A DNA stretch of 64,000 nt from IMG/VR virus record IMGVR_UViG_2541047712_000002. One strand, 5' to 3'. The translations under genes and the position numbers were made by a program. This document shows positions 12,627 to 64,000 of this stretch, one piece after another (positions within the stretch are counted from its first letter, which is position 1; every line of letters begins with the position of its first letter). The notes under the pieces were generated by a model. The model was not told the origin of the DNA and did no database searches. It saw nothing but the letters and a program-made list of their open reading frames with translations. This DNA comes from a virus. Taxonomy: Duplodnaviria > Heunggongvirae > Uroviricota > Caudoviricetes.

Positions 12627-13295
12627 ATGATCAAAAGAATATTTCTACCTATATTAATGAGCATTCCATGTTCAGTATATGCTTTAGGAATGCAACCTGA
12701 AACAACCGTTTTAATATTTAACGAAGAGAAGAATGAAGCTTCTATTTCTGTTAAGAATACAAACAGTGTGCCAAGCCTACTTCAAACAAAAATTGTGGAT
12801 ATAGGGGAAGCTGAAAATGTTCTAGTATTATCTTCACCATCAATAGTTAAAATAGAACCAGGAGAGTCTCAAATAGTAAGATTCTTTTTGAAAAAGAATT
12901 CTGATTTTGATACTCAGATACTTAAGAGAGTAAGATTTTTAGGTGTGCCTGCAAAGCAAGAAAGCAACAAAGAGAATTCATCTTTAACTTTTACAGTAGG
13001 TCAAAGTATCCCTCTTCTGATAAACCCTGTGGGGCTAAAAGTTGATCGAGAACCATGGAAACACTTAACGTATAGTTTCGATGGAAGAAATATTATTATT
13101 TCCAACCCATCTAAATATATCGTTAGAATGTATCCTGAAGTTAAAGTAAATGGAAAAAAAATAAAAGTCGAGCAGTCATATATTACCCCTAGAACAAAGC
13201 TGACCATTAAGTATGAGAGACCGCCATCTGAAATAACAATTGTACCAGTTGGTTTATATGGTGAACTTAGAGATGAATATCAAATCAAGAATTAA
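12627..13295 (+). CDS. periplasmic fimbrial chaperone (PapD-like)
   Basis: signal peptide, position between pilin and usher. Confidence 0.7.
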   Translation: MIKRIFLPILMSIPCSVYALGMQPETTVLIFNEEKNEASISVKNTNSVPSLLQTKIVDIGEAENVLVLSSPSIVKIEPGESQIVRFFLKKNSDFDTQILKRVRFLGVPAKQESNKENSSLTFTVGQSIPLLINPVGLKVDREPWKHLTYSFDGRNIIISNPSKYIVRMYPEVKVNGKKIKVEQSYITPRTKLTIKYERPPSEITIVPVGLYGELRDEYQIKN

Positions 13296-15669
13296 AATAT
13301 CTAAAAAATTATTAGCCGTTTTTATCTCTTTATATGTATCAAATGTTTACGCAGAAGCCTATTATTTTGATGATATAGAGTTGAAAACTATTGGATTATC
13401 AAAAGATGCAGGTAACACCTTATTAAAATCTGATAGATTTCAACCCGGGACTTATCATGTAAATATAGTTTTAAATAATTTGCCTACCAATTACCATGGA
13501 AAAATTCTTATTAACAATAACGGTTCTCCTTGTATCACAGGTTCGTTGCTGGAGGACATAGGAATAAATATAAGCAGGTTGGCATTCGACCATGACTTGT
13601 GTTTGAAAGAGTCTCATAAGGAAGGTGTCTTTTTTTATACTAAACCAAAAAGCCAGTCCATTGAAATATATGTCCCTATTAGTTATCTTTTATCTAATGA
13701 AAGAACATATAGCCATGGTGGTACTGCAGCTATTTTTAACTATAACATTCATGCATTAAATTCACGAGGAAAATTTGGTAACACGAATAACTACACAGCT
13801 TTTCTTACATCCGGATTTAACACTGACGATTGGATATTTCGTAACAAAACTATCGTAAGTTCCTATGATGGAAATAACGACATTAAAAACTCTGAATTAT
13901 TTGCCCAAAAAACTTTTGATGGGAGTGGTAAAACGCTAAAAGTCGGTAGTATAGATTCATTTGACCAGTTTTATGGTATGTCTTTGATTGGTTTAAATTT
14001 GAGTCCAGAATCAACATTTTCTAGTGGAATGTCCACTACAATAACAGGTTTTTCTAATGATGACTCTCAAGTGGAGATCTATCAGGCAGGGCAGCTTGTG
14101 TATGTAGGGCAAGTACGGGCAGGCCGTTATAATATTGACTCAGTACCTGTTCTTAACACTCAAACCCCTTTCGAGGTTGTTTTAGTTAATCAAAATGGAA
14201 CGAGATCAAAAAGAACAATAACAACTGCGGAGGCACTTATAAACTTAAAACAAAAACAAAGCAATGGCTTTTCATTGTCTATTGGAAAAGCGAACGATTT
14301 TAAAAGCTCAATATTTAATGAACCTGTTGTATTAACTACGAATTATGGTTGGGATACCCTTGGTAATTACACTTTTAGCAGTGGCAGCTTAATTACAAAT
14401 CAATTCTATTCATTGGCTGGCAGTGTTACATACTCATCATCGAGTAAGAATAATATTACTTTAACTAATTATGTGTCGTATTTAGATTTCAAAGATAATT
14501 TGAATAAAAAACGTATTGGAAACAGTTCAAGCATAACTCTTTCAAATCAATTTTACGACAATGTTAAAATGACGAACGCTTTTATTTATAGAACAAGTGG
14601 CTATAGAGGGATTGAAGATTTAAGCTCAGATGATTTCTGGAATTATAAATGGCAACAAACTAATAGTATATTTGCATCGTTGAAAAGTTTTGGCACCTTT
14701 GGTCTTACATATTCATTGAATGAGAGAAGTGGTCATCGTGAAAACAGCTACGGTGTGTCATGGGGAACAAACATCTATAAAGCTTATTTGAGCACAAGCA
14801 TTCAAAAGCAGCGTGTAAAATATAAAGATGATTATTCTAATGAAACTAGGTTTTATGCCCAGCTATCAATTCCTTTATCCAATAACCAAGGGATAAACTC
14901 GTCATATTCTTCTGGCAAAAAATGGAGTCGGACTGCTGTTGACTATCGGCAATATAATAGTAACACATTTAACTATGGCCTCGGTTATGCAAATGAGCAA
15001 TATGCTTCCACATCTATCAATGCAGGTTACATAGAGGCATCTAAAACATTCAGGACAACTCATGTTGGAGCAAGATACAATTTTAACCAAAACTATAAAT
15101 CACTAGCAAGTTATGCAAGCGGTGGATTACTGATAAATAATAATGCAATCACTTTATCGCCATATGAAATTGGTGACACCTTTGCCTTGATAAGAGTTGG
15201 AAATTATCCCGGTATAGAATTACAAACACCAAACGGTAAGGTATGGACTGATAATCGAGGTAATGCTGTAGCCTCTAACTTGAATCCATATACTGCAAAC
15301 CAAATTCAAGTAGTACCAGAAAACTCACCTCGTAATATAGATGTAATGCAAGGCATAAAAAAGTCGACTCCATTTAAAGGAAGCGTTAATCAAATAAGAT
15401 TTGATGCTAAGAAAGTCCAGAGATTATTGGTATATGCAGTAGACGCGCTGAATAAACCTTTACCTTACAACGCCGAAGTAGTAAATCTGGATGATAACAC
15501 AATTATGGGATTTGTAGATCATGATGGTTTAATATTCTTCAGTGACATACCATCAAAAGCTGTTAAGGTAAATATCACACAAAATCAAAGTTGCATAATT
15601 GATTTTAGCAAGTATAAAAAAACAGAAGTTAATGAAATATTTAGCACGACACATCTAACTTGTAAATAA
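13273..15669 (+). CDS. outer-membrane fimbrial usher
   Basis: ~800 aa, signal peptide, N-terminal YYFDD...FQPGTYHVNIVLNN usher motif, C-terminal Cys pair; start taken at ATG 13273 rather than the overlapping track start 13240. Confidence 0.8.
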   Translation: MNIKSRIKISKKLLAVFISLYVSNVYAEAYYFDDIELKTIGLSKDAGNTLLKSDRFQPGTYHVNIVLNNLPTNYHGKILINNNGSPCITGSLLEDIGINISRLAFDHDLCLKESHKEGVFFYTKPKSQSIEIYVPISYLLSNERTYSHGGTAAIFNYNIHALNSRGKFGNTNNYTAFLTSGFNTDDWIFRNKTIVSSYDGNNDIKNSELFAQKTFDGSGKTLKVGSIDSFDQFYGMSLIGLNLSPESTFSSGMSTTITGFSNDDSQVEIYQAGQLVYVGQVRAGRYNIDSVPVLNTQTPFEVVLVNQNGTRSKRTITTAEALINLKQKQSNGFSLSIGKANDFKSSIFNEPVVLTTNYGWDTLGNYTFSSGSLITNQFYSLAGSVTYSSSSKNNITLTNYVSYLDFKDNLNKKRIGNSSSITLSNQFYDNVKMTNAFIYRTSGYRGIEDLSSDDFWNYKWQQTNSIFASLKSFGTFGLTYSLNERSGHRENSYGVSWGTNIYKAYLSTSIQKQRVKYKDDYSNETRFYAQLSIPLSNNQGINSSYSSGKKWSRTAVDYRQYNSNTFNYGLGYANEQYASTSINAGYIEASKTFRTTHVGARYNFNQNYKSLASYASGGLLINNNAITLSPYEIGDTFALIRVGNYPGIELQTPNGKVWTDNRGNAVASNLNPYTANQIQVVPENSPRNIDVMQGIKKSTPFKGSVNQIRFDAKKVQRLLVYAVDALNKPLPYNAEVVNLDDNTIMGFVDHDGLIFFSDIPSKAVKVNITQNQSCIIDFSKYKKTEVNEIFSTTHLTCK

Positions 15670-15683
15670 GCTTTGAGGATCTC

Positions 15684-16199
15684 ATGTTTAAATTTTTTAT
15701 ATTGACATGCTCTTTGTTTTTATGCACAACCTGTTTTGCAGCAGAGTGTTCTATAACCAGCTCGCCAAATAATATATCTTTAGGTGATTTTTCCTTTGGT
15801 TCTCTAACTAAGGAAAAGGTAGCAGATCGATATTATTACACCATGAAAAAAGATATTATGATTAGTGCAAAATGTAGGAATGCATCTAACATATCATTTG
15901 TCTATTCTGCACCATATAACGGTATGGGTTTTACAATTGGTGGTGTTGATGGTTATTATACAATCAAAGTAAATAAGTTTATAGTTAATGGGGTTAGTAG
16001 GGAAGTTAGGTATGTAGACACTAACAAGAAAGTTGATTTTATTTTACCTGAGACCGCAGTTCACACTGCGATTGGAGGTGAAGATTATAGCGTTGACGTT
16101 AACTTAATGCTAAACATAGCTTTCTATTTTAATCCAAATACATCCTTAGGCAATTACAGTATTTTTACAACTGGCGAGTTTCATCTCCAAGCTCTTTAA
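15684..16199 (+). CDS. fimbrial minor subunit / putative tip adhesin
   Basis: signal peptide MFKFFILTCSLFLCTTCFA, last gene of the chaperone-usher operon. Confidence 0.6.
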   Translation: MFKFFILTCSLFLCTTCFAAECSITSSPNNISLGDFSFGSLTKEKVADRYYYTMKKDIMISAKCRNASNISFVYSAPYNGMGFTIGGVDGYYTIKVNKFIVNGVSREVRYVDTNKKVDFILPETAVHTAIGGEDYSVDVNLMLNIAFYFNPNTSLGNYSIFTTGEFHLQAL

Positions 16200-16462
16200 T
16201 AGGAGCTTTTCGGCCATGATTTAACCACTATATTATGGCCATTTTTTACCCCCCCCCTTATCTTCACTGAAAAATTTTGATAGCACGCAATAAGGGTTAG
16301 GAGTGATGTTAGATTTTCTTCAGGCCCATAGAATGATTCCATACTTACTATGTATGGAATCATTACTAAAAATGAGTTACTTTGACTCTTGATCCTATAA
16401 GAATCTATGCCTAATATACTGTTTACTTATACAGTGTATCGACGTAACTCGGTGATTGTCAT

Positions 16463-17566
16463 ATGAAAAATAGCTTTGACAGAGCACGCGCAGCGGAGAA
16501 CACCTCAAAAGAGGCGATTGAGTATCTCGAAAGAGCATCTCAAATGCAGGCCGTTATGATCTCGCAGGTTAGCAATGACATGAGATTCTCAGACGCATTC
16601 ATGTTATTCACTCGCTTATCTCTGCTGATAACAAGACGTCGACCAGAGATCGCTGTTCATTGTATTTTGATACATGTTTTGCCGCACATTGCAGATATAA
16701 AAGTAAGTGACATTAATAGGTTCATGGTGAACCAACTGGTCAACCCACTAATACTGGATGGCAAAATTGTTATGGGCCGCCGCGTTTTCTCTCTGATGAA
16801 GCAGTTCCTTAGCTGGTGTGCCTTCCAGGGGATGATCGACGTATCACCATTAAACGATATGTCACTGAATAAAGTTGCCGGTGGCGCAAAGCCAACACCT
16901 CGCGAACGGAAGCTGACCGACGCAGAGGTATGGGTGTTCTGGAATATCTGGGACTACTTCAATGTGTGCGCAGGTACAAAATGGGCAGCCAGGCTATGTC
17001 TTGTATCCGCAAGACGACCTGATGAAGTACTGCGGGCCAGAAAAAGTGAGTTCAACCTTCAGCGTGGAGTTTGGAATCAAGGCAAGAGGAACAAATCTGC
17101 CCGTGAGCATTCGCTGCCTTTAAGCACATTAATGCGCACATGTATTGAAGAGTTGTTCGAATATGGTAAAGACAGCCAGTGGCTTGTGCCTTCGAATAAA
17201 AAAATCGGGAAAGACCTTCCTATGTCTAAAGTGGCAATAGCCCAGGCATTACGTCGTATTCTGGAACGACCAGAACTGATGGAGCTTGAGCCATTTACAC
17301 CCCGAGATTTGCGCCGTACTGCGCGTAGTTACTTCCCAGCATTAGGCATAAGCCAGGAGGTATCACGTAAAATCATGAACCACAGTCTTGAGGGGATAGA
17401 TCGGGTCTACGACCGGCACGATTATATGGACGAGATGCGAGACGCCTTAGAAAGTTTCTCGACGTACATCGCATCAATCGTAGAGCAACCCGATTTAGAC
17501 GAAATTGACCACAAATTTAAGGGAGATCGTCTATCAACAGAGCTTATTCGTGTAAATTTTTCATAG
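16463..17566 (+). CDS. tyrosine recombinase / integrase (P4-like)
   Basis: C-terminal catalytic region ...FTPRDLRRTARSYF...NHSLEGIDRVYDRHDY; first His of the HxxR box is replaced by Arg. Confidence 0.75.
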   Translation: MKNSFDRARAAENTSKEAIEYLERASQMQAVMISQVSNDMRFSDAFMLFTRLSLLITRRRPEIAVHCILIHVLPHIADIKVSDINRFMVNQLVNPLILDGKIVMGRRVFSLMKQFLSWCAFQGMIDVSPLNDMSLNKVAGGAKPTPRERKLTDAEVWVFWNIWDYFNVCAGTKWAARLCLVSARRPDEVLRARKSEFNLQRGVWNQGKRNKSAREHSLPLSTLMRTCIEELFEYGKDSQWLVPSNKKIGKDLPMSKVAIAQALRRILERPELMELEPFTPRDLRRTARSYFPALGISQEVSRKIMNHSLEGIDRVYDRHDYMDEMRDALESFSTYIASIVEQPDLDEIDHKFKGDRLSTELIRVNFS

Positions 17567-17947
17567 AGACTTTATGGCCTCAACAACCTTTTGTGATGCG
17601 CCTTTCTCTTTACCGAATCGCTCGTTATATGCAGCAAGAACCTGTTTTTCGTCCTCGTTAAGAGGAGCAGTGCCTTCTTTGTATAAAAATGCTGCGAGTT
17701 CGGGTTGGCGTTCTTCCAGCACCATCATCATAAGACGACTTGGCTCAATACCCAGTGCCAGCGCCAGCGGACGAACCTTATCGATAGGCAAAGGAATTTT
17801 GCCGCTTTTAATTAAAGAAAGGTTGTTGGCGTTTTTATACCCAATTGTTTTGGCTATCTGGGCCTGGCTCATAGGTGAGGATTCAATCAACCCTGCGATA
17901 AAAGCAGCGTAGCGACTTTCTATAAATTCAATCTTGTTATCAGACAT
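17561..17947 (-). CDS. helix-turn-helix DNA-binding protein (XRE/Cro-like regulator)
   Basis: HTH segment SQAQIAKTIGYKNANNLSLIKSGK; convergent with integrase. Confidence 0.55.
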   Translation of the reverse strand: MSDNKIEFIESRYAAFIAGLIESSPMSQAQIAKTIGYKNANNLSLIKSGKIPLPIDKVRPLALALGIEPSRLMMMVLEERQPELAAFLYKEGTAPLNEDEKQVLAAYNERFGKEKGASQKVVEAIKSL

Positions 17948-58308: not shown

Positions 58309-59994
58309 ATGAATACAGCCCTTTCCATCATCGACGATGCCAACTCAAACACTGCTATCGACTATCGGCAGGAAATGAACGTCATCCACGAAATTGTGGC
58401 CGAGTGCGAGAAAGAGATCGCCTTCATGTATCAGGTTCACGACTTCGTTTATGGCGACGAACGCCACAACATGATTAATCGCCTGCTGAGACTAAACCAT
58501 CGACCAGATGAAGATCGCTCGCGTTTAAATCGAGGTTGGTTGGATAAAGTCGATCTGGAATGGGTGAAACAGAATATTTGGGCCGAGTACTGGAGGAAGG
58601 TCACGGACATGACTAACGTTTTGCTGATCATGCCAGCTTCCCGTCGAGATGAGTGGCGCGAGCAGTTTATAGAGGGCAAACAGGAAGTCATCAAAACTGA
58701 CAGAACCGGCTACCAGATGAAGGTTAAAGAGTTCGTTGGTGTACCGGAGTTCAAAGCAGAAACGGTCATACCCACGATGCTTAATTTGCTGAATGACAGG
58801 CACAAATATCTCTCTGAGCGCGTGTATGGCTTGTTTAAGGCGCTGAGTCCTGCGCACAAGACAAATAAGACAAACGGTTTCAGCGAGCGTCTGATAATCG
58901 CTGACTGCATTTCTGATTTCTGGCGGGACAGCGTTAGCGTGAACTATCGCAAAGAGGACTACATCGACGATCTGCGTGTCTTGCTTCATTTCTTCGCGCA
59001 CAAAGAATTTATTACCATCAACCGCACTGCTGAGGTGCTATCAGCTGCGTATCGGGCAAACGACTGCCAGACCGGTGACTGGATGAACGTCGATGGAAAT
59101 CTGATGCGCGTGAAGATGTTCAAGAACGGCAACGTTCACTTTGAAATACATCCTGACGTGGCCTGGAAGTTGAATGAGGTGCTGGCTTACAGTATGCCTG
59201 CTGCAATTCCCGCGCCATGCCGAACTGCGCCAAAAACACGGGCACCAAAGCAGTTCGGGTTAATCCAGAAGACGATCTCCGTGCCGGTTCGCACTGCGCT
59301 TCGTGACGGGCGATTGAGCAAAGACAAAGGCGTATGGTACTTCTCTGATTCAGCTCTCCAGAAGTCGCAGGTGGAAGAGCTTGAGCGCACACTGAGCTTC
59401 ATTGGCGGCGTGCAGGAGAAAAAGCACTGGCAGTTCCCGTATGAGATCGGCCATACGCTAAATACGATTGTGGCTACCGGATTAATACCGGATACAAAAT
59501 CACACCAGTTCTACCCTACCCCACGCTTGATTGCTGAGTACGTTGCCAGAGCCACTGAATTGAAGTCTGGTGAGAAGCTGCTGGAGCCTCAAGCCGGACG
59601 TGGGGATCTTCTGGCCTATATCAACGCCGATCTGGAAGATGTTACCTGCATAGAAATCGCACCTCTCTTCGCTGATATCCTGCGCGGAAAAGGGTATACG
59701 AACACGATTTGCTGCGACTTCATAAAGTGGTCTGAGGACAACGTAGGTTATCAGTTCGACAAAATCGTTATGAACCCGCCGTACTCGCTTGGTCGTCATA
59801 GAGAGCACACGCTGGCTGCGCTGGGGCATCTGAAAGTCGGCGGGCGTCTTGTAGCAGTATTGCCGGGCACTGCGCCAATACTGGACTGGATGACGATGGA
59901 TAATTACGTTTATGCCAGAGGGAAGTCGTTTACCAACGAGTTTGAAGACACAGGGATCACAGTCAGCGTATACGTTTTCAAACGCGTTAAATGA
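58309..59994 (+). CDS. DNA methyltransferase (NPPY type) with large N-terminal domain of unknown function
   Basis: C-terminal motif I LLEPQAGRGDLL and motif IV VMNPPY; about 390 N-terminal residues unassigned. Confidence 0.6.
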   Translation: MNTALSIIDDANSNTAIDYRQEMNVIHEIVAECEKEIAFMYQVHDFVYGDERHNMINRLLRLNHRPDEDRSRLNRGWLDKVDLEWVKQNIWAEYWRKVTDMTNVLLIMPASRRDEWREQFIEGKQEVIKTDRTGYQMKVKEFVGVPEFKAETVIPTMLNLLNDRHKYLSERVYGLFKALSPAHKTNKTNGFSERLIIADCISDFWRDSVSVNYRKEDYIDDLRVLLHFFAHKEFITINRTAEVLSAAYRANDCQTGDWMNVDGNLMRVKMFKNGNVHFEIHPDVAWKLNEVLAYSMPAAIPAPCRTAPKTRAPKQFGLIQKTISVPVRTALRDGRLSKDKGVWYFSDSALQKSQVEELERTLSFIGGVQEKKHWQFPYEIGHTLNTIVATGLIPDTKSHQFYPTPRLIAEYVARATELKSGEKLLEPQAGRGDLLAYINADLEDVTCIEIAPLFADILRGKGYTNTICCDFIKWSEDNVGYQFDKIVMNPPYSLGRHREHTLAALGHLKVGGRLVAVLPGTAPILDWMTMDNYVYARGKSFTNEFEDTGITVSVYVFKRVK

Positions 59995-60055: not shown

Positions 60056-60760
60056 ATGAACAACCTCCAGTTAGAGCATTTTAACGTCACAGGCCATTCT
60101 GATTTTCCTTTCAAGTTTACATTGAAAGGTTATGCAGAGGATACGGTAGGCCAGATCATTATTGATAAAGGCATCGTTAAGTTTGAGGGGAATTTTGATG
60201 AATCCGCGAAAACATTCATAGACTTCGTTGCCAAACGTTGGAGCGAGCAATGGAAAGGCCTGGAAAAGCGCGCTAATGAGTTTGATCGGTTCATGGATGC
60301 AATGGATACAGCAAAAGAGGCTCTTGCTGCCGGGACTCCGTTAGATCTGGAGTCACTTTTCAACGGCGAAGTGGCCTCTGCGATGTTCGCCACCATGTTC
60401 GCGGGTGAGTTCGTCCGCAGCGGTGCCAAAAACTACCTTGAGCTGGATTACAACGTCCCTGCAATTGGCGATTTCGTCGTTACCATCCAACGCAAAGAAG
60501 GTAAGACGCCAGGTGAACGCGTCGCAGAACTTGAGGCTGTTGTGGATCAGCGTAACGGAGAGTGTGACCGTTTGATCAACGAGCTTCATGCACTTCGGGA
60601 AGAAAGAATATGCGAGGGTAGTAATACACGTAATGCAGCGGATATCTACTTCCAGTTAGTTGAGGAATGCCAGATTCCACCAGGTGGCTCTCTTGTCGAT
60701 TACGTCGGACATTTAATGGCGGAAGTTAACTCCAGCCATAAAGATGGTGAGGTGCGCTGA
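60056..60760 (+). CDS. hypothetical protein
   Basis: 234-aa ORF with GAGAAAAACACATG context. Confidence 0.45.
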   Translation: MNNLQLEHFNVTGHSDFPFKFTLKGYAEDTVGQIIIDKGIVKFEGNFDESAKTFIDFVAKRWSEQWKGLEKRANEFDRFMDAMDTAKEALAAGTPLDLESLFNGEVASAMFATMFAGEFVRSGAKNYLELDYNVPAIGDFVVTIQRKEGKTPGERVAELEAVVDQRNGECDRLINELHALREERICEGSNTRNAADIYFQLVEECQIPPGGSLVDYVGHLMAEVNSSHKDGEVR

Positions 60761-61140
60761 TGTTTGGCATTGACGCACAGCGTATAGCCGCTTTTGCAAA
60801 AAGCCCTCTTGATAATCCCTTGTCTCGTAGTGAGCAAATGGAGCTGGCAAGGCTTTTTCTTCACATTCAAAAACAGGCAGACATTTTCAATAACATGCCT
60901 AATCAACCTATTCTGGATGGCCACATCCAGATGGTCATTAACAGTCATGAGAAAGGCTGGGCTGCAATCGTCCCCTGCACAATTACATACAAGTTGGCGA
61001 AAGAGGTTCAAGAGTTTCGAAAAGCCAGTGTCGAATCGGAGTCTACCAAAGCCGCAATAAACACTCTTATTCGCATGGGGTTCACATGGACCGGTGGAGC
61101 CTACTGGCAAGCACCTCACCCCATTTTATCCGGCAATTAG
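60760..61140 (+). CDS. hypothetical protein
   Basis: 126-aa ORF, ATGA-coupled to the previous gene; last phage-like ORF before host-type genes. Confidence 0.4.
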   Translation: MFGIDAQRIAAFAKSPLDNPLSRSEQMELARLFLHIQKQADIFNNMPNQPILDGHIQMVINSHEKGWAAIVPCTITYKLAKEVQEFRKASVESESTKAAINTLIRMGFTWTGGAYWQAPHPILSGN

Positions 61141-61290
61141 ACGCTACAAATCCTTCGGCATGAATAAATAAAGGCCATAAGTTGTGGCCTTAAATAAATT
61201 GTTTTCTACCTTTTCTTATTTGTGAAAATAACGTTCCTTTGTCTGGTGCTATGTACCGATCAGTTGCACTGAGTGAGCTTCTTTCATGTA

Positions 61291-61310
61291 TACTGTATAA
61301 ATGAACAGTA
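61291..61310. promoter_or_regulatory. LexA (SOS) box
   Basis: TACTGTATAAATGAACAGTA: CTGT-N8-ACAG palindrome about 17 nt upstream of the umuD'-like start. Confidence 0.7.
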
Positions 61311-61326
61311 TTGAGGGCAAAACGCT

Positions 61327-61716
61327 ATGGGCTTCCCTTCTCCTGCGGCGGATTATGCTGAGAGCCGTATTTCTCTTGATCAGCAGATAATTAGACATCC
61401 TTCAGCGACCTACTTCATGAGGGCAGCTGATAGTCATCATCGTGAGGGAATATTACAGGGTGCATTGCTGGTGGTCGATTCCTCACTTACCCCGGTTGAT
61501 GGTTCTCTGCTTGTATGCGCTCTGGATGGGGAATATCGCGTAAAAAGATACCGGAAGTACCCACGTCAGCATCTGGAGGATTTAAGAACCGGTAAGAAGG
61601 AAGCATTGCCAAAGGATGACGATGGATGCACGGGCAGCAATGCCGTGTTTGGTGTGATCACTCACATTATCAACGACGCAAGAAGTGGCGAGTTTGATGA
61701 TTGTCCCGTGATGTAG
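61327..61716 (+). CDS. UmuD'-like S24 peptidase-family protein lacking the N-terminal arm
   Basis: starts MGFPSPAADY, matching UmuD from Gly25 onward (after the Cys24-Gly25 cleavage site); Ser and Lys of the S24 dyad retained; in-frame TGA immediately upstream excludes a longer N-terminus. Confidence 0.7.
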   Translation: MGFPSPAADYAESRISLDQQIIRHPSATYFMRAADSHHREGILQGALLVVDSSLTPVDGSLLVCALDGEYRVKRYRKYPRQHLEDLRTGKKEALPKDDDGCTGSNAVFGVITHIINDARSGEFDDCPVM

Positions 61717-61753
61717 GAGAACTGATTAGGCGGTGCAATGCACCGCCTTTTTA

Positions 61754-62854
61754 TCACACTGCGCGGAATGCGATTTCGCCAGGTATTACTTCACCTTGCC
61801 AATACATTTGGGCAGCAACGCGATCTGCGAGGTCACGATAAATAGCCGTAAATTCGCTATCTGGACGACTAATAACGGTTGGTGTTCCGTTATCCAGATC
61901 TTCACGAAGAGAGATATGAAGTGGCATTTGGCCTAACAACTGCGTGTTGTATTTCTCGGCCAGTTTCTGTGCGCCACCGGTGCCAAAAATTGGCTCGTGA
62001 TGACCGCAGTTACTGCAAATATGCACACTCATGTTTTCGACGATACCCAGTACCGGCACTTCGACTTTTTCGAACATCACAATGCCTTTCTTCGCATCGA
62101 TCAGCGCGATGTCTTGCGGCGTAGTTACCACAACCGCACCAGTTACAGGAATGTTCTGCGCCAGTGTCAATTGAATGTCACCGGTGCCTGGCGGCATGTC
62201 GAGCACCAGATAATCCAGATCCGGCCATAAGGTTTCTTGCAACATTTGCATCAACGCCTTGCTCGCCATCGGGCCACGCCACACCATCGCGTTGTCGTCA
62301 GTGACCAGATAACCAATTGAGTTGGTTGCCAGGCCATGAGACATGATAGGTGCCATGTGAGTGCCGTCCGGTGAGGTTGGACGTTGGTTTTCCGCACCCA
62401 GCATGGTTGGAATTGATGGACCGTAGATATCGGCATCCAAAATACCGACTTTCGCACCTTCAGCAGCCAACGCCAGTGCCAAGTTTACTGCTGTGGACGA
62501 TTTGCCTACACCGCCCTTGCCTGAGCTGACGGCGATAATGTTCTTAACGCCATTAATGCCTGGTTGGTTTTTGACGCGCTTAAGCGTGGCAATGTTGTAC
62601 GACAGCTTCCAGTCAATAGCCTTTGCGCCAGTGATACGGAGCAGATCACCACTACATTGCTCTTTCAGGTCTTCAAAAGGCTTATTCCACACGAAAGGCA
62701 TGATTAGTTCGACATGCAGTGTGTCATCCATCAACGCAACATGGTGTAACGCTTTAAGCGTAGTCAGGTTGTGTTTCAGGGTTGGGTGCTGAAAATTAGC
62801 CAGCGTACCGGCTACCATTGCTCTCAGGGCATCCGGCGATTTGGACTCGCTCAT
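61754..62854 (-). CDS. apbC: Fe-S cluster carrier ATPase Mrp/ApbC
   Basis: near-identical to enterobacterial Mrp across its length (P-loop KGGVGKSS, CSNC motif). Confidence 0.9.
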   Translation of the reverse strand: MSESKSPDALRAMVAGTLANFQHPTLKHNLTTLKALHHVALMDDTLHVELIMPFVWNKPFEDLKEQCSGDLLRITGAKAIDWKLSYNIATLKRVKNQPGINGVKNIIAVSSGKGGVGKSSTAVNLALALAAEGAKVGILDADIYGPSIPTMLGAENQRPTSPDGTHMAPIMSHGLATNSIGYLVTDDNAMVWRGPMASKALMQMLQETLWPDLDYLVLDMPPGTGDIQLTLAQNIPVTGAVVVTTPQDIALIDAKKGIVMFEKVEVPVLGIVENMSVHICSNCGHHEPIFGTGGAQKLAEKYNTQLLGQMPLHISLREDLDNGTPTVISRPDSEFTAIYRDLADRVAAQMYWQGEVIPGEIAFRAV

Positions 62855-63011
62855 CCCGTCTCCTTTATTTTAATTTGCGCAATTGTCGCCTTGTAGTGTA
62901 CTCCAGCTACGACATTTAATCATTTATGAGAAATGCTGTTATCACATGGCAGACATAAGGCCATTTTGTTACTATCAAGCCCCTTTTCACTACAAAGAAG
63001 TAATGCCTACT

Positions 63012-64000
63012 ATGACCCAAGTCGCGAAGAAAATTCTGGTGACGTGCGCGCTGCCGTACGCTAACGGCTCAATCCACCTCGGCCATATGCTGGAGCACAT
63101 CCAGGCTGATGTCTGGGTTCGTTACCAGCGAATGCGCGGCCACGAGGTTAATTTCATCTGTGCCGACGATGCCCACGGTACGCCGATCATGCTGAAAGCA
63201 CAGCAGCTTGGTATCACACCGGAGCAGATGATTGGCGAAATGAGTCAGGAACACCAGACTGATTTCGCAGGCTTTAATATCAGCTACGACAACTATCACT
63301 CGACGCACAGCGAAGAGAACCGTCAGTTGTCTGAGCTTATCTATACTCGCCTGAAAGAGAACGGTTTTATTAAAAACCGCACCATCTCTCAGTTGTACGA
63401 CCCGGAAAAAGGTATGTTTCTGCCGGATCGTTTTGTAAAAGGCACCTGCCCGAAATGTAAAGCGCCAGATCAATACGGCGATAACTGTGAAGTCTGCGGC
63501 GCAACATATAGCCCGACTGAATTGATCGAGCCGAAATCGGTGGTTTCTGGCGCTACCCCGGTAATGCGTGATTCCGAACACTTCTTCTTTGATCTGCCTT
63601 CTTTCAGCGAAATGTTGCAGGCATGGACCCGCAGCGGCGCGTTGCAGGAGCAGGTGGCGAACAAAATGCAGGAATGGTTTGAATCCGGCCTGCAACAGTG
63701 GGATATCTCCCGAGATGCGCCTTACTTCGGTTTTGAAATTCCGAACGCGCCGGGCAAATATTTCTACGTCTGGCTGGACGCGCCGATTGGCTACATGGGT
63801 TCCTTCAAGAATCTGTGCGACAAGCGCGGCGATACCACCAGCTTCGATGAATACTGGAAGAAAGACTCCACCGCCGAGCTGTACCACTTCATCGGTAAAG
63901 ATATTGTTTACTTCCACAGCCTGTTCTGGCCTGCCATGCTGGAAGGCAGCAACTTCCGCAAGCCGACCAACCTGTTTGTTCACGGCTATGTGACGGTGAA
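63012..64000 (+). CDS. metG: methionyl-tRNA synthetase, 5' portion (runs off the window)
   Basis: [35 protein letters not shown] with HIGH motif; absent from the ORF track because no stop lies in the window. Confidence 0.9.

Follow-up and report, generated by a model that had tools for sequence, protein, structure and literature searches.

The stretch of DNA analysed here (the window) is 64,000 nucleotides long, and it carries a short gene preceded by a predicted LexA operator. In the open reading frame list this gene occupies 61327–61716 on the + strand and encodes 129 amino acids plus a stop codon, with the N-terminus MGFPSPAADY. We call it humD, as NCBIfam model NF051876 and identity to P1 HumD and to a phage Cyrano product mark it as encoding a pre-processed UmuD′-like protein. 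A motif scan of the window finds the LexA box core CTGT-N8-ACAG at 61293–61308, and this core lies inside the 20-mer TACTGTATAAATGAACAGTA at 61291–61310 (+ strand), which is the predicted LexA operator (SOS box) and is the same as the LexA site in the phage P1 record AF234173. By direct reading, TACTGTATAAATGAACAGTA matches the palindromic LexA consensus TACTG(TA)5CAGTA at 17 of 20 positions. On its own, the loose 16-mer does not reach significance, with 0.85 occurrences expected per window, 2 found, and 2 or more present in 20 of 100 shuffles; the stricter TACTGT-N8-ACAGTA, with at most one mismatch, is expected by chance 0.08 times per window and is found twice. The initial annotation had placed the box 17 nt upstream of the gene, and the box is indeed there, while the distance to the humD ATG needs a small correction, being 18 nt from the 16-mer and 16 nt from the 20-mer. 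Expressed from that ATG, the box of the window sits at −36, and in P1, N15, HK639, Hafnia yong1 and E. coli umuDC a box lies at −34 to −39 before the start codon.

It had also been proposed that an in-frame stop just upstream rules out a longer precursor, and the reading frame bears this out. A TGA at 61312–61314 (+ strand) blocks any N-terminal extension, with the frame reading ...NEQY, stop, GQNAMGFPS, and the 12 nt between the TGA and the humD ATG (GGG CAA AAC GCT) contain no ATG, GTG or TTG. Because of this stop, and because no alternative start precedes the ATG, a longer UmuD-like precursor of HumD is excluded. The TGA overlaps the sequence GAGGG at 61313–61317 (+ strand), which we read as a plausible ribosome-binding site.

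The gene upstream, at 60760–61140, is followed on its 3′ side by a terminator-like hairpin at 61171–61191 (+ strand; RNA fold −12.1 kcal/mol, z = −2.84), which probably terminates the transcript of that gene. On the other side of humD, an intrinsic terminator at 61728–61753 (+ strand; −18.6 kcal/mol, z = −5.42) is made up of a 9-bp GC-rich stem and then TTTTT, and it lies between humD and the convergent apbC gene. Since humD is flanked by these two hairpins, it looks like its own small transcription unit. A consensus scan finds no + strand sigma-70 promoter upstream of humD, and manual inspection of the same region gives no convincing −10 element. The hexamer TTGCAC at 61264–61269 (+ strand) is a candidate −35, invariant in the window, in plasmid pCPE35 and in P1 while the flanks diverge; the closest −10-like hexamer found by manual inspection, TATACT at 61289–61294, is 19 nt off and poorly spaced. 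The next gene, apbC (mrp), runs from 61754 to 62854 on the − strand, converges on humD, and lies outside the humD unit; it encodes 366 amino acids, is 95% identical to K-12 Mrp, and is host-like cargo of the phage-plasmid.

The predicted protein scores 219.8 bits against the equivalog model NF051876, named 'HumD family translesion DNA polymerase', for which the cut-off is 120, and residues 1–129 of the protein align with positions 1–129 of the 129 in the profile. Its score with the UmuD model NF007621 is 87 bits, under the cut-off of 110, and with the LexA model TIGR00498 it is 27.2 bits against a cut-off of 110.95. The protein also matches Pfam Peptidase_S24 (PF00717; 37.9 bits vs a cut-off of 23.3) and PHROG 811, 'UmuD-like' (E = 2.7e-54). 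The best sequence matches in the PDB are UmuD′ (1UMU, E = 6.7e-23; 1I4V; 1AY9) and full-length UmuD (8GMT), and HumD residue 2 pairs with residue 1 of the UmuD′ chain in 1UMU and with residue 25 (Gly25) of UmuD in 8GMT. By tblastn, residues 25–139 of K-12 UmuD align at 42% identity. The claim that the open reading frame begins at the position of processed UmuD′ is thus confirmed, and the same start point is typical of the family, as 109 of the 120 best cluster representatives begin exactly one residue (Met) ahead of the Gly that matches UmuD Gly25. An AlphaFold model based on 33 members of the family has a mean pLDDT of 65.5, with the core at about 80 and residues 1–24 and the C-terminal tail below 50; when this predicted model is searched against the PDB with Foldseek, the top five hits are all UmuD′ or UmuD and rank above the C-terminal domains of LexA and lambda cI.

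Several other identities were considered and set aside. The model scores and the PDB rankings, in which LexA and lambda cI fall under UmuD′, speak against the C-terminal domain of a phage repressor, and the assignment to the UmuD homologues made at the outset holds. A LexA- or repressor-type regulator is rejected because the HumD profile spans all 129 residues and leaves no room for a DNA-binding domain. The protein has the S24 core of UmuD′, but it is not a UmuD-type autoproteolytic subunit, as NF007621 stays under its cut-off, the N-terminal arm and cleavage site are missing, and there is no umuC operon. The protein of the window is 100% identical to the product of CYRAN_98 from Escherichia phage Cyrano (pLF82). 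From these sequence comparisons, we conclude that the locus is an ordinary humD copy and its product a member of the HumD family.

P1 HumD, like the window copy, has 129 residues, starts with MGFPSPAADY and passes NF051876; the two proteins are 91.5% identical, with 11 substitutions, and the genes are 85.5% identical at the nucleotide level. P1 HumD was first described in 1999 by McLenigan, Kulaeva, Ennis, Levine and Woodgate (J Bacteriol 181:7005), in a paper that by its title has HumD facilitating SOS mutagenesis. In that work, P1 HumD, although poorly expressed, is said to have restored mutagenesis in recA430 lexA(Def) cells, and it reportedly formed dimers and bound both UmuC and RecA filaments. 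The 20-nt operator of P1 is the same as that of the window and of pCPE35, and from this operator to the ribosome-binding site the window is 3 nt shorter than P1. In the P1 record AF234173, a 20-nt feature that lies 19 nt ahead of humD is entered as 'LexA binding site in the regulatory region of lxr and humD', and the note on HumD says 'DNA repair; functionally complements E. coli UmuD′'. P1 HumD has been described as an already activated, shorter UmuD (PMC7092418).

To place the gene on its element, we compared the window with known phages and plasmids. From 39001 to 64000 the window is covered 100% by phage Cyrano at 98.5% identity, collinearly and with apbC and metG included, and about two thirds of 1–25000 matches Cyrano and the CMS-2020a phage-plasmids at 96–98%, with Salmonella phage SSU5 at about 80%. 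Cyrano is the phage-plasmid pLF82 of E. coli LF82; it is described as SSU5-like, with siphovirus virions and about 5.5 copies per cell (PMC9928086). The humD-apbC junction recurs in many E. coli plasmids of about 105–113 kb. In the complete 106-kb pCPE35-IncFIB, the order is a gene for a DUF4942 protein, two hypothetical genes, humD, the convergent apbC, metG and then further phage-plasmid genes, and this plasmid also encodes RepB, ParB, terminase, portal, capsid and tail proteins, dnaE, nrdAB and thyX. By these alignments, the window is a Cyrano/pLF82-type SSU5-like phage-plasmid in which mrp/apbC and metG are host-derived cargo. SSU5 carries different genes at the syntenic position, so humD-apbC-metG is accessory cargo of the E. 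coli branch.

The initial annotation had taken this place for an island boundary, and that part of its reading does not stand. There is no such boundary, because mrp/apbC and metG next to humD are genes of host origin that the phage-plasmid carries as cargo, and Cyrano spans 39001–64000 fully with both genes included. A chromosomal island at mrp/metG was rejected, as the 3′ 25 kb is collinear with Cyrano and many plasmids. In K-12, mrp lies between yehE and metG.

The statement that no umuC follows humD and that mrp comes next is correct, and the suggested check for umuC elsewhere was extended to the rest of the element. A tblastn search with K-12 UmuC detects no umuC in the 64-kb window (best E = 4.4), and the annotation of the complete 106-kb pCPE35-IncFIB lists no Y-family polymerase. 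The possibility of a umuC hidden elsewhere on the element was dropped on these two results. The hosts themselves do carry the gene: of 5426 complete E. coli genomes, 5423 have umuC, which is nearly always chromosomal. In the same 5426 genomes, humD-like DNA occurs in 770 (about 14%), and 698 of the 811 places where it lies are on plasmids; the identity classes of these copies agree with Cyrano-like copies (at least 95%) and P1-like copies (80–90%). A protein search returns 561 homologues at E ≤ 1e-5 in Escherichia, Citrobacter, Klebsiella, Enterobacter, Salmonella, Kluyvera and Trabulsiella, most of them 126–130 residues long and many named HumD by their sources. Truncated humD remnants are found in Stx2 phages and in mEp234.

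A gene in such a position might be a decaying, functionless passenger that recombined in from a P1-like element. The similarity between the window and P1 fades about 65 nt upstream of the humD ATG, and the homology is limited to a promoter-to-stop cassette, as a recombined passenger would predict; humD also lies in a variable cargo region that has no counterpart in SSU5, and the remnants in Stx2 phages and mEp234 point the same way. Against this reading, dS for humD between the window and P1 is 0.80, dN is 0.042 and dN/dS is 0.05, and the operator is identical at 20 of 20 positions. The low dN/dS at this dS, together with the identical operator, therefore indicates that both the protein and its operator are under purifying selection. 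In addition, the open reading frame, operator, ribosome-binding site and terminator are all intact, and humD is kept across many plasmid records. We thus regard a functionless passenger as very improbable.

The reading that we favour, and hold to be very probable, is that this is a self-contained, LexA-repressed humD gene on a Cyrano/pLF82-type phage-plasmid, whose product, when derepressed in the SOS response, pairs with host UmuC and skips RecA-mediated cleavage. In an undamaged cell, host LexA bound to the operator at 61291–61310 would keep transcription of humD low. Upon DNA damage, RecA* would promote the self-cleavage of LexA, and humD would be transcribed. HumD, which has the length of processed UmuD′, would dimerise and join chromosomal UmuC in a Pol V-like translesion polymerase. 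The slow RecA*-dependent cleavage of UmuD to UmuD′, which normally delays mutagenic bypass, would be skipped, and the presumed benefit would be damage tolerance for both the episome of about 108 kb and its host. We infer LexA binding, SOS induction, dimerisation, the partnership with UmuC and the benefit all from the 91.5% identity to P1 HumD. In keeping with the favoured reading, a LexA box also stands before the homologues of N15, phiKO2, HK639 and Hafnia yong1 and before the HK140 operon.

The catalytic residues of the S24 fold bear on whether the protein might instead act as a protease. As had been claimed, the Ser/Lys dyad is retained in the window copy, where Ser36 and Lys73 occupy the positions of UmuD Ser60 and Lys97. 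With both residues at the catalytic positions and a match to Pfam Peptidase_S24, HumD could in principle still work as an S24 serine protease or as a repressor-type C-terminal domain, cutting itself or some other target and serving as an SOS-linked regulator of the phage-plasmid. Against this, the protein has no DNA-binding domain, its LexA score is 27 bits vs the cut-off of 110.95, and it has no cleavage-site arm, because the UmuD cleavage site lies just before the point where the protein begins. Furthermore, the family does not need the dyad. Among the 120 best cluster representatives, 75 have Ser at the nucleophile position, 43 have Thr and 2 have Ala, and in 107 the GDSM motif has His in place of its Met, the window copy reading ADSH. 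The Lys is kept in 117 of the 120, but it is lost in more distant homologues, being Met in HK639 and Leu or Arg in Aeromonas pAEv1818 and Hafnia yong1, and the Ser position of these distant homologues is Thr, Ala or Tyr. By these residue counts, constraint on the ancestral protease Ser is relaxed, and the dyad is not a requirement of the HumD family. These substitutions fit a protein that no longer cleaves itself, and we consider an active protease or repressor-type domain to be highly unlikely.

A second feature that sets the family apart is its C-terminal tail, INDAR..EFDDCPV, which is missing from UmuD′ and is at least 90% conserved among 104 representatives with under 80% identity to the window copy. 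Such conservation suggests some function beyond simple mimicry of UmuD′. One such function could lie in the SOS response itself, if HumD mainly modulated RecA filaments or SOS, by damping recombination or prophage induction or by titrating UmuD/UmuC, with translesion activity being incidental. The acidic tail would suit this role, and so would the surroundings of some homologues, as those of phiKO2 and HK140 adjoin a homologue of dinI, a regulator of RecA filaments, near a LexA box. In phiKO2, an annotated LexA site is common to the humD homologue and a divergent dinI, and in HK140 a two-gene operon has a box in front of it. The poor expression of P1 HumD and its binding to RecA filaments, reportedly described by McLenigan and colleagues in 1999, would likewise favour a modulator. 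However, no dinI neighbours humD at the window locus, the P1 record gives complementation of UmuD′, and the title of the 1999 paper gives facilitation of SOS mutagenesis; the sequence itself offers nothing that separates a modulator from a polymerase subunit. We therefore view a primarily modulatory role as unlikely, and a UmuC-paired, pre-processed subunit as the better account of this gene.

The acidic C-terminal tip of SSB, DFDDDIPF, is loosely like the HumD tail. It is conceivable, and we offer it as a speculation with little weight, that the tail is a docking peptide for a partner besides UmuC, which would make HumD a phage-specific adaptor between SOS induction and replication or repair of the episome. 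Possible partners would be a protein that binds the SSB tail, a Pol III subunit, or the phage-plasmid's own DnaE-type replicase. In that case, to describe HumD as a pre-cut UmuD′ would be incomplete.

Taken together, the original observation is confirmed and its interpretation was right in substance, and it is supported in part, since the gene is not unusual and its context was misread. A LexA-regulated, already processed UmuD′ without its polymerase had been called unusual; humD has been known from P1 since 1999, and near-identical DNA in RefSeq records already carries the label 'HumD family translesion DNA polymerase'. All of this, from gene and operator to their logic, was known before, and what the window holds is a known gene in a known kind of element. 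The corrected context is an SSU5-like phage-plasmid with host-derived apbC and metG, not the edge of a chromosomal island. The humD cassette is common and resides mostly on phage-plasmids, with possible relevance for stress-induced mutagenesis in clinical and livestock strains. At the level of the family, the relaxed protease Ser and the conserved HumD-specific C-terminal tail are now on record.

When the window is set beside known systems, P1 provides the nearest arrangement in protein and operator but not in surroundings. P1 is also an extrachromosomal phage-plasmid of E. coli and also lacks a cognate umuC. In P1, humD has the divergent lxr upstream and phd-doc downstream, whereas in the window a hypothetical gene on the same strand lies upstream and the convergent apbC lies downstream, and the carrier is a P1-like myovirus in one case and an SSU5-like siphovirus phage-plasmid in the other.

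The homologues N15 gp26, phiKO2 gp23, HK140 gp28 and HK639 gp28 belong to the same family, being 64–71% identical, 127–129 residues long and of the same start point. They too have a LexA box upstream and no adjacent umuC. They differ from the window copy in having Thr rather than Ser at the nucleophile position, and they adjoin tail-fibre, partition or integrase genes, with some lying beside dinI.

E. coli UmuD and UmuD′ (1UMU, 1AY9, 1I4V, 8GMT) have the S24 fold in common with HumD of the window, and the LexA box of umuDC, at −39, is placed much like the one at −36 in the window. Compared with UmuD, however, HumD lacks the 24-residue N-terminal arm and the Cys24-Gly25 cleavage site, so that there would be no RecA*-mediated activation step. 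It also lies outside a umuC operon, has ADSH in place of GDSM, and carries about 10 additional C-terminal residues with EFDDCPV.

Finally, the MucA/MucB, RumA/RumB, ImpA/ImpB and SamA/SamB systems are likewise borne on mobile elements, linked to SOS and part of the same superfamily (PMC7092418, PMC11541004). MucA, RumA, ImpA and SamA are full-length precursors that need cleavage, and their genes share an operon with a Y-family polymerase of their own, and it is by these descriptions that HumD is set apart from them.

The serine of the HumD Ser/Lys dyad (Ser36, the ancestral protease nucleophile position) is encoded at window 61432–61434, and the lysine (Lys73) is encoded at 61543–61545. Among the 120 best HumD cluster representatives, 75 have Ser at the nucleophile position, 43 have Thr, and 2 have Ala, and the Met of GDSM is replaced by His in 107 of the same 120. 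The dyad Lys is also lost in distant phage homologues of HumD. Judged from the sequences, the Ser36/Lys73 dyad of the window copy is probably vestigial. HumD also carries a C-terminal extension that UmuD does not have (INDAR..EFDDCPV, residues 115–128), and the family alignment gives this extension a conservation of 90% or more over 104 diverse representatives of HumD. It is modeled by AlphaFold with low confidence, and it bears a loose likeness to the acidic C-terminal tip of SSB, DFDDDIPF.

The names given to these proteins vary between records. In phage Cyrano (OV696614; L009 3312–4839), the identical HumD protein is named "LexA-like peptidase S24" and ApbC is named "Septum site-determining protein MinD," while RefSeq plasmid records use "S24 family peptidase," "DNA repair protein," and "HumD family translesion DNA polymerase" for HumD. 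The last label misleads, since HumD is not itself a polymerase but an accessory subunit. A 561-aa DUF4942 protein, whose counterpart in Salmonella phage SSU5 is annotated as a DNA methyltransferase, is encoded three genes upstream of humD (58309–59994), and neither of the intervening ORFs (60056–60760 and 60760–61140) has a Pfam match.

At window 61754–64000 the phage-plasmid also carries apbC/mrp, which encodes a 366-aa Fe-S carrier with 95% identity to K-12 Mrp, together with the methionyl-tRNA synthetase gene metG, a 2,034-bp gene in the pCPE35 plasmid and Cyrano. The two genes are divergent and have the chromosomal arrangement. The syntenic site of SSU5 does not contain this segment, which looks like a host segment captured by the phage-plasmid.

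A second strong LexA-type box, the 20-mer TACTGTTTACTTATACAGTG, is located at window 16417–16436, 26 nt 5′ of a 367-aa tyrosine recombinase/integrase ORF (16463–17566, plus strand; Pfam Phage_integrase). A gene for a small HTH regulator (17561–17947, minus strand) converges on this ORF. The predicted box is exactly kept at the equivalent position in pCPE35 (L004 18941–18960), and we suggest that the phage-plasmid recombinase may be under SOS control. Further CTGT-N8-ACAG boxes are found outside the window, among the small genes that follow metG in pCPE35 (L001 18977–18992) and Cyrano (L009 10425–10440), and two are in the corresponding region of SSU5 (L008 5587–5602 and 6012–6027), one of which precedes SSU5_103 at 16 nt. 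These boxes hint at a wider putative LexA regulon on SSU5-like phage-plasmids. Immediately 5′ of the recombinase ORF, within 13240–16199, are an ORF for a fimbrial usher of 809 aa (Pfam Usher, PapC_N, and PapC_C) and an ORF of 171 aa whose start resembles a signal peptide. This pair may be strain-specific cargo, since Cyrano and CMS-2020a cover only 67–69% of window 1–25000.

In Stx2-converting phages, mEp234, and Sf101, the match is limited to HumD residues 45–128, mostly without an annotated gene, and in the Stx2 phage records it lies no more than a few hundred bases from where the record ends. These matches look like truncated humD remnants. Unlike humD in the window, which has no dinI neighbor at its locus, the humD homologues of phiKO2 (L010 1181–1884) and HK140 (L012 910–1890) each adjoin a dinI homologue that is transcribed divergently, and a LexA box lies between the two genes; in these phages, two SOS-modulating genes thus travel together.
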